Below the pieces are notes generated by a model. The model made no database searches, had not been told where the DNA came from, and saw only the letters and a program-made list of their open reading frames with translations. Shown in pieces: positions 12,057-44,060 of a DNA stretch of 64,000 nt. Made by a program: the position numbers and the translations under genes. Position 1 is the first letter of the stretch; every line of letters begins with the position of its first letter. The DNA is taken from the NCBI GenBank assembly GCA_965198105.1, contig OZ240240.1, forward strand, positions 2,656,650 through 2,720,649. Reading direction: 5' to 3'. The DNA comes from Dehalococcoidia bacterium (GTDB taxonomy: Bacteria; Chloroflexota; Dehalococcoidia; Lucifugimonadales; CBDBON01).

Positions 12057-12075
12057 TAGCATCGGAACAAAAAAA

Positions 12076-12166
12076 GCCAGGGGGAGCTCGGAATGCCGGG
12101 CTGAGAGGGCAGCCGTGACGCTGTCGACCCCTTGAACCTGATCTGGGTAATGCCAGCGAAGGGAAG
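12076..12166 (+). ncRNA. TPP (thi-box) riboswitch
   Basis: GGGGAGC...GCTGAGAG...GACCC-TTGAACCTGATCTGGGTAATGCCAGCGAAGGGA matches the TPP aptamer consensus; lies upstream of thiamine genes. Confidence 0.97.
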
Positions 12167-12186
12167 AGGCATCTTCTCGAATCCTA

Positions 12187-13460: not shown

Positions 13461-13543
13461 TCCCTCCCCCTCCCCTGCGGGAGAGGGTGGCGTAAATCCC
13501 TTCCCCCGGCTCCGCGGGGGAAGGCTAGGATGGGGGTTCCCCA
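13461..13543. repeat. two REP-like palindromes (families B and A) at the thiB-thiD junction
   Basis: CCCTCCCC-tgc-GGGAGAGGG, then CCCTTCCCCC-ggctccgc-GGGGGAAGG-CTAGGATGGGGG. Confidence 0.85.
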
Positions 13544-14387
13544 CGTGAAGGTCGTCGCGACCATAGCCGGCTCCGACTCCGGCGGAGGCGCGGGCATCCA
13601 AGCCGACCTGCGCGCGATCACCGCCAACGGCGGCTTCGGAGCGTCGATAGTCACCGCCATAACCGCGCAGAACACGGTGGCCGTCACGATGTCGCAGGAG
13701 ATGGCTCCCGCGATGATCGACGCCCAGTTCGACGCCGTCTTCGGCGACATGCGCGTCGCGGCCGTCAAGACGGGGATGCTCGCCAGCGGGCGGGTGATCG
13801 AGACTGTCGCCGCCGCGCTCCGGCGGCACAGGCCCCCTTTCTTCGTCCTCGACCCCGTAATGGTGTCCAAGTCGGGCTACCGCCTGCTCGAAGAGCAGGC
13901 GGTAGCGGCGCTCCGCGAGACGCTCTTCCCGCTGGCGACGGTGATCACGCCAAACGTCCACGAGGCCGAGACCCTGACCGGACGAACGGTCCGGTCGGTC
14001 GCCGACGCCGAGAATATCGGACGAGAAATACTGAGCTATGGCCCCGGGGCGGTTCTGGTCAAGGGAGGCCACCTGATCTCCGAGCCGGCGACAGACGTGC
14101 TCGTCACCGAGGAGGGATCGACCACCCTTCCCGGCGAGTGGATCGACACGAAGCACACGCACGGAACAGGCTGCACCTACTCGGCGGCCATAGCCACTCA
14201 CCTCGCCCGCGGCCGCTCGCTCGCCCATGCGGCGCGCCTGTCCAAGGCCTACGTGACCGAGGCGATACGCGGCGGTCTTGCGATCGGAGAGGGGAGCGGC
14301 CCCACCGACCACCTATTCTACGCCCGGAGGCCGGAGCTCCACGAGTGGGCCGAGCGGCTCGGCCTCGCCCGGTCCTGGGCCGAGTAG
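13530..14387 (+). CDS. thiD: hydroxymethylpyrimidine/phosphomethylpyrimidine kinase
   Basis: IAGSDSGGGAGIQAD, VKTGML, DPVMVSKSG, VKGGH and HTHGTGCTYSAA motifs; GTG at 13545 is an alternative start. Confidence 0.95.
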   Translation: MGVPHVKVVATIAGSDSGGGAGIQADLRAITANGGFGASIVTAITAQNTVAVTMSQEMAPAMIDAQFDAVFGDMRVAAVKTGMLASGRVIETVAAALRRHRPPFFVLDPVMVSKSGYRLLEEQAVAALRETLFPLATVITPNVHEAETLTGRTVRSVADAENIGREILSYGPGAVLVKGGHLISEPATDVLVTEEGSTTLPGEWIDTKHTHGTGCTYSAAIATHLARGRSLAHAARLSKAYVTEAIRGGLAIGEGSGPTDHLFYARRPELHEWAERLGLARSWAE

Positions 14388-14489
14388 CACAGGAGGCCTC
14401 AGCCCTGAACAGCCCAGCCTCAAAGGTCCCCTCTCCCCTTTGCGGGAGAGGGTTAGGGTGAGGGGGGACAGCGTGAATCGCAAAAACTT

Positions 14490-15755
14490 ATGAACAGCCC
14501 AAGTACACCCCATCCGTCATTCCCGCGAAAGCGGGAATCCATCCCCCCGATTCCGAAGAGCGCAGAGATCGTCGTCATCGGCGCGGGCGTCATCGGCCTG
14601 TCCATCGCCTTCGAGCTGGCGCGGCGCGGCAGAGCCCCGGTCGTCCTGGAGAGGGACCGGGTAGGCGCCGGCGCCGCCTCGGCGGCGGCGGGAATGCTGG
14701 CGCCCGTCTCGGAGGCCGAGGCCGAGGAGCCGGCGCTGGTCGACCTCGCCGTCGACAGCCATCGGCGATACCCCGAGTTCGTCGCAGCCGTCGAGGAGGC
14801 GTCGGGCATCTCGTGCGGGTTCCGGAGAGAGGGCACGCTGATCGTCGCCCTGGGACGGGACCATGAGGCCGACCTCCACCACCTGCGCGAGGCCCAGCGG
14901 TCGCGCGGACTCACGGCCGTGTCGCTGACCGCGGACGAGGTGTTCGCGCTCGAGCCGCATCTGAGCGGATGGGTGACGGCCGGCCTCCTGGCCGCCGAGG
15001 ACTATCAGGTGGACCCCAGGCTGCTGCTGGCCGCGCTGAACGCCGCCGCCGGAGCGATGGGAGTCCGGGTGATCGAAGGGGTGAGGGCGACGGCCGTCGC
15101 CCCCTCGTCGAGCGGTACGAGGGTGCTGGCCGATGCCGGCGGCGTGGAGGTGGAGATCGAGTGCGACGCCGCGGTCGTCGCGGCGGGAGCCTGGATCGAC
15201 GGGCTTCTAACGCCCGCGGGAGCGTTCGGCGTCCGGCCGGTCAAGGGCCAGGTCGTGCGCCTGAGGGCGCCCCATCTCATCGATCACGTGCTCCGGACGC
15301 CCGACGTCTACGTGCTGCAGCGGGAGAGCGGCGAGCTGGTCATAGGAGCGACAGTGGAGGAGCAGGGCTTCGACGCCGCGCCGACGGCGGGAGCGGTGAT
15401 GGACCTCCTCCGCAGCGCCTGGCATCTACTGCCGGCGGTCTACGACTGCGAGCTCGCGGAGGTGAGCGTCGGCTTTCGCCCCGCCTCCCGCGACCACGCC
15501 CCCATCATCGGAGAGACGGAGACCGGGGGAGTCTTCGTCGCTACAGGGCACTACCGGCACGGCGTGCTCCTCGCGCCCGCCACCGCGCACCTCCTCTCCG
15601 ACATGATCACCGGAGGAGTCCGCTCCGATCTGCTGGCGCGGTTCGATCCCTCCCTCCGGTCCTCCTCCCTTCCCCCGGCTCCGCGGGGGAAGGCTCCCGC
15701 CTCTATCCCTTCCCCCGGCTCCGAGGGGGAAGGTCAGGATGGGGGTCCCCCATGA
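14490..15755 (+). CDS. thiO: glycine oxidase
   Basis: IGAGVIG, ASAAAAGMLAP, VKGQ, GFRP and GHYRHGVLLAP motifs; thi operon context. Confidence 0.92.
   Translation: MNSPSTPHPSFPRKRESIPPIPKSAEIVVIGAGVIGLSIAFELARRGRAPVVLERDRVGAGAASAAAGMLAPVSEAEAEEPALVDLAVDSHRRYPEFVAAVEEASGISCGFRREGTLIVALGRDHEADLHHLREAQRSRGLTAVSLTADEVFALEPHLSGWVTAGLLAAEDYQVDPRLLLAALNAAAGAMGVRVIEGVRATAVAPSSSGTRVLADAGGVEVEIECDAAVVAAGAWIDGLLTPAGAFGVRPVKGQVVRLRAPHLIDHVLRTPDVYVLQRESGELVIGATVEEQGFDAAPTAGAVMDLLRSAWHLLPAVYDCELAEVSVGFRPASRDHAPIIGETETGGVFVATGHYRHGVLLAPATAHLLSDMITGGVRSDLLARFDPSLRSSSLPPAPRGKAPASIPSPGSEGEGQDGGPP
14515..14541 (+). repeat. CGTC-tagged palindrome (ATTCCC-N8-GGGAAT) inside the thiO 5' coding region
   Basis: CGTCATTCCCGCGAAAGCGGGAATCCA; second copy at 15985-16011, reversed variant at 42771-42798. 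Confidence 0.88.
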
Positions 15756-15961
15756 GGACGATCACGGTCAACGGAGAGGCGCGCGCCGCTCCCGGCGGGG
15801 GCACCGTCGCCGCCCTTCTCACGGAGATGGGAGTGCCTCTAGACAGACGGGGGGTCGCCGTCGCCGTCAACGGGGAGATCGTCTCCAGGGAGCGGTGGGG
15901 CTCCGCGCCCCTGGACGAGGGCGACCACGTGGACCTGGTGAGGCCCGTGCAAGGAGGCTGA
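15752..15961 (+). CDS. thiS: sulfur carrier protein
   Basis: MRTITVNGE...[10 protein letters not shown]...C-terminal VQGG; ATGA overlap with the thiO stop. Confidence 0.95.
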
Positions 15962-15962
15962 G

Positions 15963-16841
15963 ATGAGCCGGAATCCTACACCTCCGTCATTCCCGCGAAG
16001 ACGGGAATCCATCCCTGCCAACCACGATGACCGGTGGGATCTGGCCGGACTGCCCCTGAGCTCCAGGCTCATCATGGGCACGGCCAGGTATCCGAGCCGT
16101 CAGGTGCTCCTCGACTCCCTGGCGGTGTCCGGCGCCGAGATGGTGACGGTGGCCCTGCGCCGCGTCGGAGTCGGCGCAGGCGATGAGAACCTGTACGAGG
16201 TGCTGTCGGGTGCGGGCTACGCGCTGCTGCCCAACACTGCCGGATGCTTCACGGCGAGGGACGCCGTGCTCACCGCGGAGCTTGCGCGGGAGGCGCTCGG
16301 CACCGATCTGATCAAGCTGGAGGTGATCGCCGACGACGCGACCCTGCTCCCGGACGGCGAGAAGCTGCTGGCCGCGGCCCGCACTCTGGTGGACAAGGGC
16401 TTCAAGGTGCTCCCCTACACCAACGACGATCCGATACTGGCGCTGAAGCTGGAGGACATCGGCTGCGCGGCCGTCATGCCCCTGGGGGCTCCCATCGGAT
16501 CGGGGCTGGGAATCCGCAACCCCCACAACATCCAGCTCATCAAGTCGCGCGCGGCCGTCCCGGTGATAGTGGACGCGGGCGTCGGCACCGCCTCCGACGT
16601 CGCGGTGGCCTTCGAGCTGGGATGCGACGCCGTGCTGCTCAACAGCGCCGTCGCCCGCGCCCAGGACCCGGTCCGCATGGCGAGGGCGGTCGGACACGCG
16701 GCGGTCTCCGGCCGGGAGGCGTTCCTGGCGGGAAGGATGCCCCGGAAGTTCTACGCGGAGCCGACCAGCCCGATGGCGGGGCGCGTCGAGGCCGCGCCCA
16801 CACGAAGAATCCCTTCCCCCGCAGAGCCGGGGGAAGGTTAG
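15963..16841 (+). CDS. thiG: thiazole synthase
   Basis: [37 protein letters not shown] and LLNSAVA motifs. Confidence 0.97.
15985..16011 (+). repeat. CGTC-tagged palindrome inside the thiG 5' coding region
   Basis: CGTCATTCCCGCGAAGACGGGAATCCA. Confidence 0.88.
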
Positions 16842-16854
16842 GATGGGGGTTCTC

Positions 16855-17475
16855 ATGAGACTGTCCGAGGATCTCTGGAGGGAGTCGTCCGATCTCGCGG
16901 ACGCCTGTCTGAACCATCCCTTCGTCAGAGGGCTGGCGGACGGGTCGCTGCCGCCGGAGCGCTACGCCCTGTTCATCGCGCAGGACGCATTCTTCCTGGA
17001 GGTGGACGCCCGCGCCTACGCGGCCGGGGTCTACCGCTCGCCGGACGCGGAGAGCCGTCGCGACTGGCACGAGCTCCAGTGCGGAGTGTTCGAGGAGCTG
17101 AAGCTGCACGGGGGCGCGGCGAAGAGGCTCGGCATCGATCTCGACCGTGTGACGCCCCTCGGGGCGACGAGGGCGTACACCGACTTCCTGCTCGCCAACA
17201 CCTTCGGCGGCACCCTGGCCGAGCTGGCCGCCTCCGTCGCCCCGTGCGTCCGCCTCTACTGTCACCTCGGCACACGCATCGTCGCGGAGGGCCACCCGCC
17301 CCACGACTACACGCAGTGGGCCGAGACCTACGCGGACCTGTCGTTCAGCGGGCTGGTCGAGCGGATCGAGAGACTGCTGGACCGCCACGCCGGCCGCACG
17401 CAGGGAGAGCGCGACAGATACCGGCAGGCGATGAGGCTGGAGCTGGAGTTCTTCGAGCAGGCCTGGACCGGCTGA
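16855..17475 (+). CDS. tenA: thiaminase II / TenA family protein
   Basis: HPFVRGL, FIAQDAFFL, YTDFL, APCVRLY, WAETY and ELEFFEQAW motifs; an upstream ATG at 16843 lies inside a repeat. Confidence 0.9.
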   Translation: MRLSEDLWRESSDLADACLNHPFVRGLADGSLPPERYALFIAQDAFFLEVDARAYAAGVYRSPDAESRRDWHELQCGVFEELKLHGGAAKRLGIDLDRVTPLGATRAYTDFLLANTFGGTLAELAASVAPCVRLYCHLGTRIVAEGHPPHDYTQWAETYADLSFSGLVERIERLLDRHAGRTQGERDRYRQAMRLELEFFEQAWTG

Positions 17476-21877: not shown

Positions 21878-21906
21878 GGGCGGGTCGACATGGCCCGCCT
21901 TTTCAT
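21878..21906 (+). terminator. intrinsic terminator
   Basis: GGCGGGTC-gacat-GGCCCGCC followed by TTTTCATTT. Confidence 0.7.
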
Positions 21907-22089
21907 TTGTGGTATTGATGGGGGACACTTGAAATTCTCTCGAGGGACCGAAAGTCGGCTGATAGTGGTCGTTTTGTTACTGTAGATTGAATGCATAGCA
22001 TACTCGTACAGAAGCAATCGCGGAGACAGATAAGGGAGTATGAATTGGGCACATTTGGTGCGGAATGTCAGTCCTGGAGAAGCAGTGAC

Positions 22090-22332
22090 ATGGCCGCCTA
22101 CCTGAACGTCGCCCTGGAAGAGGGCGACGTGAGCCTTATCATGGCGACGCTGGGAGACATCGCCCGCGCCAGGAGAATGGCGGTGGTGGCGCAGGAGACG
22201 GGGCTGGCGAGGGAGAGCCTCTACAAGTCGCTGTCCGCCGACGGCAACCCGGAGTTCGCCACCATGCTCAAGGTGGTGCGCGCCCTGGGACTCCGGCTTC
22301 GGGCCGCCACTGCGGAAGCGACCGGCGAATGA
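22090..22332 (+). CDS. addiction-module antidote protein (HI1420-like HTH), N-terminally short, no toxin partner
   Basis: AAYLNVALEEGD..LGDIARARRM..VA.ETGL.RESLYKSLS..GNPEFAT.LKV..ALGL.L. Confidence 0.8.
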   Translation: MAAYLNVALEEGDVSLIMATLGDIARARRMAVVAQETGLARESLYKSLSADGNPEFATMLKVVRALGLRLRAATAEATGE

Positions 22333-22460
22333 TGAGGGCGGTGCGTGGAGCGTGTGTTCAGAGGCGGGGATCAAGGAGTGGAATCGGGCGTGGAAACTCG
22401 CGTTGATTGAGAGGGGCAATCCAGGATGGCTGGACCGTCTCTGTGAATGTACAGAGGGGT

Positions 22461-24308
22461 TCAACTAGGCGTGTCGATCGGTATGCCGTCGTACTTGAGT
22501 GCAATCCGGGTCAATTCCGGCAGGATACCAATACGACCGAGTCCCAGAAATAGTCTATAAGCCGAATCAGCCGAGGCCTTCGATTCGGACATCGACTGGC
22601 CGGCCCCGTGTTCAGCAGGGTTTCTGGAGTCGGCAAGCTGCCTCATACTCGCGGGCAGGTTCTCAGTCAAGAACTGCTTTTCGCACTCATCGAAACCGTC
22701 CCGGAAACTGTTACGTTCGCAAATTTCAATGTATTTACGAATGTCGAGTGCATCGAGGACATCGAGGTAGTTAGGTTCCGTCTTCTCAAAAAACTTCGGC
22801 AGATACCAATAGCACATCTCCTCGGTTGCCCGCTGTAGATCGTTAAGAATCGTCTCCCTGCTCACTCGTTGCGTGGAGTTCCAGATTATGTCCGCGTCGA
22901 CGAGTCTCTCCTGTGTACGTTCAGGCAACCTCGACCAACTGCTGCCGAAGAAATATCGCTGCAGCCTACGCTCGGCTGCCTGCTTTTCGTCTTCATCACG
23001 CATCTTCCTGTACTCGCTGGGGCTGAGTTGGGCAGTCGCCCACGCCGCAGCGCTGTGCCAGAACTCACCCCAATTGACTGTATTCCCTTTGCCATCGTGG
23101 ATACGCACACGATCGATATTTGCTGCGAGCACCTCGTGGATGTCCTCTGACTGTTCAAACTCTTCAAGATCGTAAAGCTCTATGTAGTATTTTTCGAAGT
23201 ATTCATCCGGGTCGGCTTCTTCGATTTCGTCGAACCTCCAACACATCCCCTGATTGGCTAGGATTAAGCAGTCGGCGGCAACCGACCTCCAATCATTGAT
23301 AGATCGCCTATCTGTCCGGAGCTCTTCAATCAACTCGGTGAATTGTGTAACGGATATCCGCAGGCCTGTCAGGAAATACTCGAGGTCACCGCCCCAGGGC
23401 GGTACCGCGTTGGGCGCGAACCGGTCTCGACCCAGCGGCCAAGCATCCCATAAGCCCATAGGGGTAGGCAGTGCGTATTCGTAGAGCTCGCCCGCTCGTG
23501 CGAGGTAGTGAAGGGCGTCCGCGTAGCATCCGTCGATCCGGCTGATACGGCTCAGGAACACGAAAGAGATAGCTGAGACTGCGAGGGTAGAGTGATAGAT
23601 CGCGACGCCTTCCAGTCTTAGCTCACCTCCCTGCCAACGCTCGACCTTGTGGTCGAAGCCGGCTCGGTCGAGGAGATCGAGAGTCCTCTTCACATCAGCT
23701 AGACAGGCTCTCACTTCTTCAGAGAAGCCGTCGGTCTGACGGAGCTTGAACGCGCGTGCGGCGGCGACATGGATGAACACCAAGGCGTTCTTGAAGGCTA
23801 CGGGGAACGCCATGCTGTCCGGGGGACCTTCATCGTGGGCTTCCAGGAATGCCCTTATCTCGGAGTCGTCACCGTCCGGTTCATACGACACACGGTGGCG
23901 GTGGTACAGCAGCTCGAGGACTTCCAGCACTGCCCTCTTGTCTGGATTCGCTTCCCTCTGGGCCCAGTCCAACTGTCGTTCGACTTCTCGATACGTCGAT
24001 GACAGTTCCATCACCCGGGACATGTCCCGTTCTCGTCCGGCCTCCAACATCGCCTCTTCGATGGAGGCAAGCCTAGCCTTGGAATTCTCATCCTGGTCAA
24101 CTAGTCTCGGGGCCGGTGATCTTGCTCCCTCGTTGTCCTTCAACGTTGGCTGGTACAGATCCCAGAACAGGTACATGGGATGGAAGGAGTCGGCATGGTC
24201 TCGGAATCTCAGCAGAGTGTCTATATCGGCCCAAACGAACTCACTCGACGCAGCGAGCGACTTCAGGCCGTCCCACGGTTCATCTAGGTGTGAATCCGAA
24301 TCACTCAT
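22461..24308 (-). CDS. large hypothetical protein with a putative C-terminal HEPN domain
   Basis: Long open frame with atypical, lower-GC composition; AAGGA SD and TGcTATAAT promoter; RNPAEH (R-x4-H) motif near the C-terminus. Confidence 0.7.
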   Translation of the reverse strand: MSDSDSHLDEPWDGLKSLAASSEFVWADIDTLLRFRDHADSFHPMYLFWDLYQPTLKDNEGARSPAPRLVDQDENSKARLASIEEAMLEAGRERDMSRVMELSSTYREVERQLDWAQREANPDKRAVLEVLELLYHRHRVSYEPDGDDSEIRAFLEAHDEGPPDSMAFPVAFKNALVFIHVAAARAFKLRQTDGFSEEVRACLADVKRTLDLLDRAGFDHKVERWQGGELRLEGVAIYHSTLAVSAISFVFLSRISRIDGCYADALHYLARAGELYEYALPTPMGLWDAWPLGRDRFAPNAVPPWGGDLEYFLTGLRISVTQFTELIEELRTDRRSINDWRSVAADCLILANQGMCWRFDEIEEADPDEYFEKYYIELYDLEEFEQSEDIHEVLAANIDRVRIHDGKGNTVNWGEFWHSAAAWATAQLSPSEYRKMRDEDEKQAAERRLQRYFFGSSWSRLPERTQERLVDADIIWNSTQRVSRETILNDLQRATEEMCYWYLPKFFEKTEPNYLDVLDALDIRKYIEICERNSFRDGFDECEKQFLTENLPASMRQLADSRNPAEHGAGQSMSESKASADSAYRLFLGLGRIGILPELTRIALKYDGIPIDTPS

Positions 24309-24544
24309 GTTCCTTCGTCCTACGACAACGACTCTTGCTACGGCTGCACGGCCCACCAGCGGTGGATTATAGCAACGTCGAAGCTCCCACCCCAGGTCCC
24401 TCGCTGCGCTCGGGACGACAGGGAGGCCCCCTCATCCTAAACCTTCTCCCGCGAGGGGAGAAGGGACCAGCTCCGCCCCCATAAGCTCCCACGCCCCCTA
24501 AACATTCCCCCGTGAGAGGAGAGCGGGACCACTCTCCCGTCATC

Positions 24545-43932: not shown

Positions 43933-44060
43933 TAGCGGCCTGCCCGGATGCCTCTGATCGATCGCGGCGACGGTGGGAGCCCCCATCCTGACCTTCCCCC
44001 GGCTCTGCGGGGGAAGGGAGGAGAGAGCCGTCCCGCAGGCAGCGGGCCCCGCGGAACCGG

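Follow-up and report, generated by a model that had tools for sequence, protein, structure and literature searches.

Hairpin repeats of the NTS/SRM family as probable in-frame, translated insertions behind the start codons of thiO and thiG in a Dehalococcoidia bacterium

In a 64-kb stretch of contig OZ240240.1 from a Dehalococcoidia bacterium (assembly GCA_965198105.1; hereafter the window, in whose numbering all positions are given), the thiamine biosynthesis genes thiO and thiG each carry, close to the 5' end, a copy of the same short palindrome, a hairpin repeat of the type known as the Neisseria Transformation Sequence (NTS) or SRM. We consider it highly probable that in both genes the hairpin was inserted behind a start codon that was already in place, and that it is now translated as an N-terminal tail of near-neutral effect. 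A mobile or copy-prone DNA hairpin would have landed a few codons past the start, adding ~48 nt to thiO and 42 nt to thiG, and would now be read as a hydrophilic, disordered N-terminal tail. The genes would have stayed functional because the inserts are multiples of three, the SFPR[KR]RES frame is free of stop codons and the N-termini lie outside the folds. Selection would let pass only in-frame, stop-free and hydrophilic readings, and the effect on the two enzymes would most likely be neutral or nearly so, that of selfish DNA in a permissive place.

The 27-nt pattern CGTCATTCCCGCGAA(AG/GA)CGGGAATCCA has two matches in the 64 kb, both on the forward strand, at 14515-14541 in thiO (CGTCATTCCCGCGAAAGCGGGAATCCA) and at 15985-16011 in thiG (CGTCATTCCCGCGAAGACGGGAATCCA), against an expectation of 0.00 matches from 100 dinucleotide shuffles; searches of the window that allowed up to three mismatches, or that used the degenerate SRM motif as published, found no further copy. 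Both copies lie within the longest open reading frames (ORFs) and are read in the frame TCA-TTC-CCG, which gives PSFPRKRESI in ThiO and a corresponding 10-residue peptide of the SFPR[KR]RES type in ThiG, so that the preliminary description of this DNA was right to report one palindrome in one frame at the N-termini of both proteins. Its attribution of the palindrome to the dRS3 repeat of Neisseria was likewise correct and can be sharpened. The 28-nt NTS, CGTCATTCCCGCGMAVGCGGGAATCYRG, has the classical dRS3 repeat (ATTCCC-N8-GGGAAT) within it. Its single-stranded DNA (ssDNA) folds into a hairpin, which the 94-aa GIY-YIG nuclease SsnA binds and cleaves; non-palindromic flanks, of three nucleotides upstream and a C directly downstream, give the semi-palindrome its orientation, and the upstream CGTC flank and the C after the palindrome are critical in both cleavage and binding (PMC11893778; Nat Commun 2025). 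The core, ATTCCCGCGCAGGCGGGAATC, is also treated as the repetitive extragenic palindrome (REP) sequence of the REPIN population that a Group 2 RAYT mobilises in Neisseria (PMC11893778). Compared with the published NTS, the copy in thiO agrees at 27 of 28 positions, the mismatch being the final G, and the copy in thiG at 26 of 28; the published NTS search tolerated one mismatch (PMC11893778). Both copies satisfy the SRM regular expression and keep the CGTC flank and the 3' C, and these matches identify both palindromes as NTS/SRM hairpin repeats.

The repeat is far from confined to Neisseria. In a scan of one genome per species, the exact 25-mer GTCATTCCCGCGAANGCGGGAATCC turned up in at least 120 stretches, spread over more than 15 phyla; the matches listed include Bacteroidota, several proteobacterial classes, Planctomycetota, Nitrospirota, Acidobacteriota, groups of the candidate phyla radiation, and many Dehalococcoidia and other Chloroflexota. 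Among these matches the copies often form inverted pairs, 30-110 nt apart. In 154 copies from other genomes conservation of the flanks ends at ~28 nt, which speaks against a longer mobile unit defined by conserved extended flanks. The NTS is one member of a pan-bacterial family of small DNA hairpins linked to Ssn GIY-YIG nucleases and/or RAYT transposases. The window holds a trace of such a nuclease, a sequence with 60% identity over 25 aa (E = 1e-6) to the C-terminal part of an intact 97-aa protein from another genome (locus L167) that Pfam assigns to GIY-YIG. Ssn homologs are single-domain GIY-YIG proteins (cd10448), and the repeats typically flank their genes. This remnant comprises 25-30 aa, has no intact N-terminal catalytic part and is not flanked by NTS copies; it suggests, by its sequence, that the lineage once carried an NTS-associated nuclease. 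It sits in a patch of lower GC content, at ~21900-24400. A motif scan found no intact ssn gene in the window, where tblastn with the L167 protein returned the C-terminal remnant only, and a six-frame motif scan of the window, a weak test, found no RAYT gene or HUH/Y1 transposase motif.

The two copies differ in the state of their hairpins. The one in thiO has an 8-bp stem closed by a GAAA loop (RNA fold -13.6 kcal/mol, z = -3.3). In the thiG copy, a single mismatch relative to the intact copy of the relatives L083-L085, GCGGGAAT to ACGGGAAT, leaves a 7-bp stem and an imperfect palindrome, and the RNA fold is weaker (-9.4 kcal/mol, z = -1.5). The similarity between the copies reaches past the core, to 50 nt of 80% identity starting directly after each ATG. 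They are singlets in direct orientation, 1.47 kb apart, and bracket thiO-thiS.

The preliminary description had proposed that alignment with orthologs would reveal the repeat as an insertion, and this proved to be so for both genes. Syntenic thi operons were fetched from relatives for comparison at the DNA level (L-numbers denote loci fetched from other genomes), and thiG offers an unusually clean before-and-after case, with the same Shine-Dalgarno (SD) sequence and start codon found with and without the 42 nt. In a six-sequence DNA alignment, the 42 nt are carried by the window, L083 and L085 and are cleanly absent, as a gap of 42 columns, in L081, L206 and L207; the insertion is missing from L082 as well. 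The string AAGGAGG-C-TGA-(G/C)-(A/G)TG, which comprises the SD, the thiS stop and the thiG start, lines up in all six sequences, and the start position of the window is kept in each of the other five (L081, L083, L085, L206 and L207); the SD is embedded in the terminal Gly-Gly codons of thiS. As SD, stop and start align with and without the insertion, the thiG start predates it and the 42 nt lie inside the reading frame. At the protein level, MSRN-[PS] and then the repeat-encoded block open the ThiG of the window and of two close relatives at 93-96% identity; in some ten relatives at 74-82% identity the N-terminus is MTNN------SGTEDRW, with no such block. Three assemblies made from different samples contain the copy, which is therefore not an assembly artefact. 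Within the NTS, the window and L083 differ at two nucleotides, both synonymous (AGA/AGG and TCC/TCG), of which the AGA/AGG difference breaks the hairpin stem and leaves the peptide unchanged. No target-site duplication was seen at the thiG insertion; for mobilisation of the IS200/IS605 type none is expected.

In thiO, the insertion has to be read against more distant orthologs. Relatives at 60-70% identity start MNE-KLPDRAE-VV.VGAG, and the window reads MN-SPSTPHPSFPRKRESI-PPIPKSAE-IVVIGAG; the initial MN is common to both, and a block of ~16 aa is missing in the relatives, one of which, L206, begins ATG AAC GAG CAG ATG CCG CAC AGA GCC GAG. Closer relatives also carry the repeat, as one slightly degenerate copy in L085 and as two tandem copies in L081 and L082. 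From the SD-proximal (A/C)TG AAC to the codons of the GxGxxG motif, the distance is 90 nt in the window, 141 nt in L081 with its two copies and 81 nt in L085, in every case a multiple of three and free of stops. Of the two tandem copies of L081 (L081:4892-4990), the second keeps its stem through a compensatory pair of changes, with ACTCCC in place of ATTCCC and GGGAGT in place of GGGAAT; the pair is consistent with selection on the hairpin or with palindrome-templated correction. In L207, a relative of ~63% identity, the thiO-thiS spacer contains a distinct SRM-like variant, GTCATTCTGAGCCCGCGGGCGAAGAATC (L207:3710-3745), so that hairpins of the NTS/SRM class are recurrent neighbours of thi genes in the clade.

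The thiO start itself has been rebuilt in the window. In the relatives an SD, 8 nt and a CTG stand directly before the thiO leader. In the window the corresponding CTG at 14405 opens an 18-codon upstream ORF (uORF) ending at TGA 14459-14461, and it is separated from thiO by a further insertion of ~72 nt, a palindrome of different sequence flanked by a 13-nt duplication (CTGAACAGCCCAG and ATGAACAGCCCAAG, at 14405-14417 and 14490-14503). The downstream duplicate holds the thiO ATG, at a codon where all relatives have CTG; this ATG 14490 is the sole canonical in-frame start of thiO (Table 1).

Table 1. Features of the window that bear on the repeats in thiO and thiG
Feature	Position	Strand	Basis or detail
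TPP riboswitch, operon head	12070-12181	+	Rfam RF00059, 66.9 bits, E = 5.7e-11
thiD	13530-14387		ORF and Pfam
Relic thiO initiation region: AGGAGG (14391-14396), 8-nt spacer, CTG (14405-14407)	14391-14407	+	
Different palindrome CCCCTCTCCCC-TTTGC-GGGAGAGGG plus TTAGGGTGAGGGG, ~72-nt insertion	14418-14489	+	
thiO, glycine oxidase, 421 aa	14490-15755	+	DAO domain from residue 27
In-frame insertion in thiO, SPSTPHPSFPRKRESI, ~48 nt (16 codons), boundaries ambiguous	14496-14543	+	Comparison with orthologs at 60-70% identity
NTS copy 1, CGTCATTCCCGCGAAAGCGGGAATCCAT, thiO codons 9-18	14515-14542	+	Pattern and SRM match
thiS	15752-15961		ORF and Pfam
thiG Shine-Dalgarno AAGGAGG, 5 nt before ATG	15951-15957	+	Invariant in 6/6 aligned sequences
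thiG, thiazole synthase, 292 aa	15963-16841	+	ATG 15963 after thiS stop TGA 15959-15961
In-frame insertion in thiG, 42 nt (14 codons)	15978-16019	+	DNA alignment, 42-column gap in L081/L206/L207
NTS copy 2, CGTCATTCCCGCGAAGACGGGAATCCAT, thiG codons 8-17	15985-16012	+	Pattern and SRM match
GIY-YIG Ssn-like nuclease gene, C-terminal remnant EAGIKEWNRAWKLALIERGNPGWLD	22352-22440	+	tblastn, L167 GIY-YIG protein query
Third palindrome family, sites	13495-13543, 15664-15752, 16808-16856, 43975-44032, and ~10 more sites		
Third family, two copies read as extra ThiO C-terminal tail, ~26-30 aa	15663-15752	+	
Third family, copy forming last ThiG residues and TAG stop 16839-16841, just 5' of tenA start	16808-16852	+	

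Translation of the inserted leaders is favoured by the arrangement of starts and domains. Pfam places the beginning of the DAO domain of ThiO and of the ThiG domain at ORF residue 27 and at profile position 2, and each protein therefore has a leader of ~26 residues before a complete domain. In AlphaFold2 (AF2) models built from alignments of 79 and 80 sequences (mean predicted local distance difference test score, pLDDT, 85 for ThiG and 89 for ThiO), residues 1-24 of ThiG and 1-23 of ThiO form low-confidence coil, with the first β-strand starting at residue 25 of ThiG and spanning residues 24-30 of ThiO; the extra residues are thus predicted to lie outside the TIM barrel of ThiG and the Rossmann fold of ThiO. 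The preliminary description had further argued that the copies lie between the start and the conserved core with no in-frame start after them, and that the repeat should accordingly be translated. Inspection of the codons bears out the first point, there being no ATG, GTG or TTG between either copy and the conserved core: thiO continues from repeat to core as ATC CCC CCG ATT CCG AAG AGC GCA GAG ATC GTC GTC ATC GGC, and the first such codon after the thiG repeat is the ATG within the conserved ...SRLIMGT... motif. The second point is supported by the conserved start positions, the lack of an alternative start and the kept frame, a judgement made by comparing sequences. Mis-called starts, the objection that the same description had raised against itself, can be set aside: where orthologs lack the repeat, their leaders are short rather than long and unrelated, and their start codons stand at identical positions. 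For thiG the case for translation is strong, because the start is canonical, positionally conserved and served by an SD, no alternative start exists, the frame is kept and the differences within the NTS are synonymous. For thiO the case is good but weaker. If translated, the leader would give one of the two proteins an N-terminal peptide reading (M)NSPSTPHPSFPRK.

The two insertions appear to differ in age. The one in thiO is the older by sequence comparison, because it is common to lineages whose ThiO proteins are 86-92% identical; the one in thiG, missing in L081 and L082, would for that reason be either younger or lost once, and its stem is decaying in the window. Both copies lying in one operon fits the known clustering of the NTS and local copying. 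These differences in age, together with a clustering that is the habit of the repeat family, take away the weight that the preliminary description gave to the occurrence of the palindrome in two enzymes of one pathway. A tentative possibility is that the thiG copy did not arise by independent transposition but was copied locally from the thiO leader segment, 1.5 kb away, through template switching or ectopic recombination. Local copying would account for the shared frame and flanks: the 80% identity over 50 nt extends beyond the NTS and includes a shared ACACC(C/T)C upstream and ATCCC downstream, flanks are unconserved past ~28 nt in the 154 copies from other genomes, and L081 has a local tandem copy in its thiO leader. 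However, Chloroflexota copies commonly have C-rich sequence upstream and end in CCAT(C) on the 3' side, and the loops differ, being GAAG in thiG and GAAA or GAAC in thiO. This possibility concerns origin only and is compatible with the explanation of the repeats as translated insertions.

Several observations weigh against that explanation. The window has just two NTS copies and a truncated GIY-YIG remnant. The NTS is open in five of its six reading frames, so the lack of stops is weak evidence, and with three of the five open frames hydrophilic the frame shared by the two copies is unremarkable. L084 has a version that is shortened and out of frame; this locus comes from a 4x-coverage assembly with several frameshifts and was for that reason excluded as a test of frame conservation. 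Around thiO, ATG 14490 has no SD within 20 nt, the ancestral SD now lies 85 nt upstream, before a uORF, and the SD-proximal codon in the relatives is CTG, a weak start. In L081, the gene caller picked an in-frame GTG (METVVIG) that lies 3' of the repeats, and the repeats of L081 could therefore be 5'-untranslated region. Three of the observations on thiO would suit the alternative that the repeats are not translated at all, with starts at downstream non-canonical ATC, ATT or CTG codons and the NTS hairpins acting as RNA structures of the 5' leader: the ATG without an SD, the GTG called beyond both repeats of L081, and the stability of the RNA hairpin formed by the thiO copy. We nevertheless judge this alternative unlikely. 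The thiG SD and start behind the thiS stop hold their position whether or not the insertion is present, both window genes lack a canonical start beyond the repeat, the candidate ATC, ATT and CTG codons have no SD-like sequence in front of them, three different thiO leader lengths are all in frame, and a start at the thiG CTG would cost the nearly invariant Trp25.

More doubtful still is that the hairpins have been co-opted for the thiamine genes, either to control translation of thiO and thiG at the RNA level or as an NTS-gene-NTS cassette through which Ssn would limit recombination or transformation. The only two copies of the window lie in one operon, in the same orientation, bracketing thiO-thiS, and in Neisseria certain genes have NTS copies clustered around them and an NTS-gene-NTS arrangement lowers transformation through SsnA (PMC11893778). 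The compensatory stem change in the second copy of L081 would also speak for such a role, as would the minimum free energy (MFE) fold, in which the thiG SD pairs with a CCUCC of the leader. Against this, the thiG copy is missing in L081 and L082 and its stem is decaying in the window, the GIY-YIG gene of the window is a truncated remnant only, the operon is already under a thiamine pyrophosphate (TPP) riboswitch, and such leaders are missing from the orthologous operons of more distant relatives. Template switching can, moreover, produce compensatory changes in palindromes and needs no selection to do so. As for the pairing, the CCUCC at 15981-15985 of the inserted leader is complementary to the GGAGG at 15953-15957 of the SD; sequestration of the SD was set aside, as the fold energy is no better than that of shuffled sequences (z = -0.5). 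Just as doubtful is a broader proposal, in which the NTS leaders would be a coordinated control point for the two thiazole-branch enzymes (through mRNA hairpins or SD-to-leader pairing that would tune translational coupling of thiO and thiG, or through an NTS-thiO-thiS-NTS arrangement that would mark the segment for Ssn-type ssDNA cleavage and affect recombination or repair), and NTS/SRM repeats and Rickettsia palindromic elements (RPEs) would form one pan-bacterial class that repeatedly builds new protein termini and even new start codons, as with the thiO ATG, which lies in the target duplicated around a second inserted palindrome. Nothing in the analysis indicates a thiamine-specific function or a new mechanism.

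The genes of the operon follow the order thiD, thiO, thiS, thiG, tenA and thiE, behind the TPP riboswitch, its recognised regulator. Rfam reports this riboswitch as its only match and no known RNA or riboswitch at the repeat sites, which rules the repeats out as a riboswitch or other known RNA. The closest ThiG and ThiO relatives of the window are from uncultured Chloroflexota/Dehalococcoidia-like metagenome-assembled genomes (MAGs), the best ThiG match in a collection of GTDB representatives having 80% identity. A third, GC-rich palindrome, CCCTTCCCCCG-N5-8-CGGGGGAAGG, often followed by TAGGATGGGGG, is present in at least 14 copies in the 64 kb. Two of them are read as an additional C-terminal tail of ThiO, which ends at the ATGA overlap with thiS and is modelled by AF2 as coil (pLDDT 41-49). 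Copies of this family stand 5-25 nt 5' of the thiD, thiS and tenA starts; a general role as a cassette of stop, SD and start was rejected, as it holds for thiD, thiS and tenA and not for most other copies of the window.

The NTS/dRS3/REP element was already known, and in-frame translated palindromic repeats have been known since the work on RPEs. What is new is the host lineage, the position in the N-terminal leaders of two adjacent genes of one pathway, the comparative series of insertions of different ages and a link, at the level of sequence, to RPE-like insertion. The findings extend in-frame translated palindromes beyond RPEs of the Rickettsia type to the NTS/SRM family, and their hosts to an uncultured relative of the Chloroflexota. 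They also yield a rule for annotation: the peptides SFPR[KR]RES, VIPAKAGI, HSRESGNP, DSR[FL]RGND and WIPAFAGMT flag an NTS copy, and such a copy at a gene terminus can be real coding sequence and not a mis-called start.

Among known systems, the NTS/SRM repeats of Neisseria are the nearest, with a near-identical sequence (27 and 26 of 28 positions), the same ATTCCC-N8-GGGAAT hairpin with its orienting CGTC 5' flank and 3' C, clustered copies, and a trace of an Ssn-like GIY-YIG gene in the window. The host here, however, is neither Neisseria nor a proteobacterium, the window has two copies, and its Ssn is known from the truncated remnant alone. Both copies are, moreover, inside coding sequence, whereas only 2% of the NTS copies of N. 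meningitidis 8013 lie inside genes (PMC11893778). With the REP/REPIN-RAYT systems of Bertels and Rainey, the element shares the hairpin core and, in other genomes, the inverted doublets 30-110 nt apart. The window copies, in contrast, are singlets in direct orientation and not inverted doublets with a REP-flanked cognate RAYT. REPs are extragenic by definition; the NTS copies that were fetched from other genomes stand mostly at or near ORF ends, and several lie in frame inside proteins. In the MurF of Massilia sp. LXY-6 (L103:1562-1643), for instance, an inverted NTS pair is in frame within the Mur ligase middle domain (…DSRLRGND…) of an otherwise intact ORF, and a Terriglobia membrane protein of the PMT_2 type contains an in-frame NTS read in the hydrophobic frame VIPAKAGIL.

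The closest functional parallel is with RPEs, palindromic repeats inserted in frame in unrelated housekeeping genes, where they are translated as additional peptide segments that the fold tolerates, and in-frame fusions of RPEs and of miniature inverted-repeat transposable elements are well documented (PMC10969869, a review; RPEs from Ogata et al. 2000). Like RPEs, the window repeats are insertions relative to orthologs, in frame and stop-free, in otherwise conserved genes, and the extra peptides appear compatible with the fold (low-pLDDT coil in AF2, Pfam domains from residue 27). RPEs, however, are ~100-150 bp long and usually internal, and the insertions described here are 42 and ~48 nt long, consist of a single ~28-nt hairpin and stand at the extreme N-terminus. 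Because of these lengths and the one hairpin in each, we do not class the window repeats as RPEs, and by analogy they would work as RPEs do. The parallel, which the preliminary description had already drawn, proves apt: in the IleS of the Rickettsia endosymbiont of Polydrusus tereticollis (L205:1642-1769), the exact 25-mer occurs in frame as an inverted pair, spaced by ~103 nt, between the anticodon-binding domain and the C-terminal one. Given this in-frame 25-mer, at least some RPE-like insertions and the NTS may share a core and a sequence ancestry. A shared RPE/NTS core, if true, would join two separate literatures.

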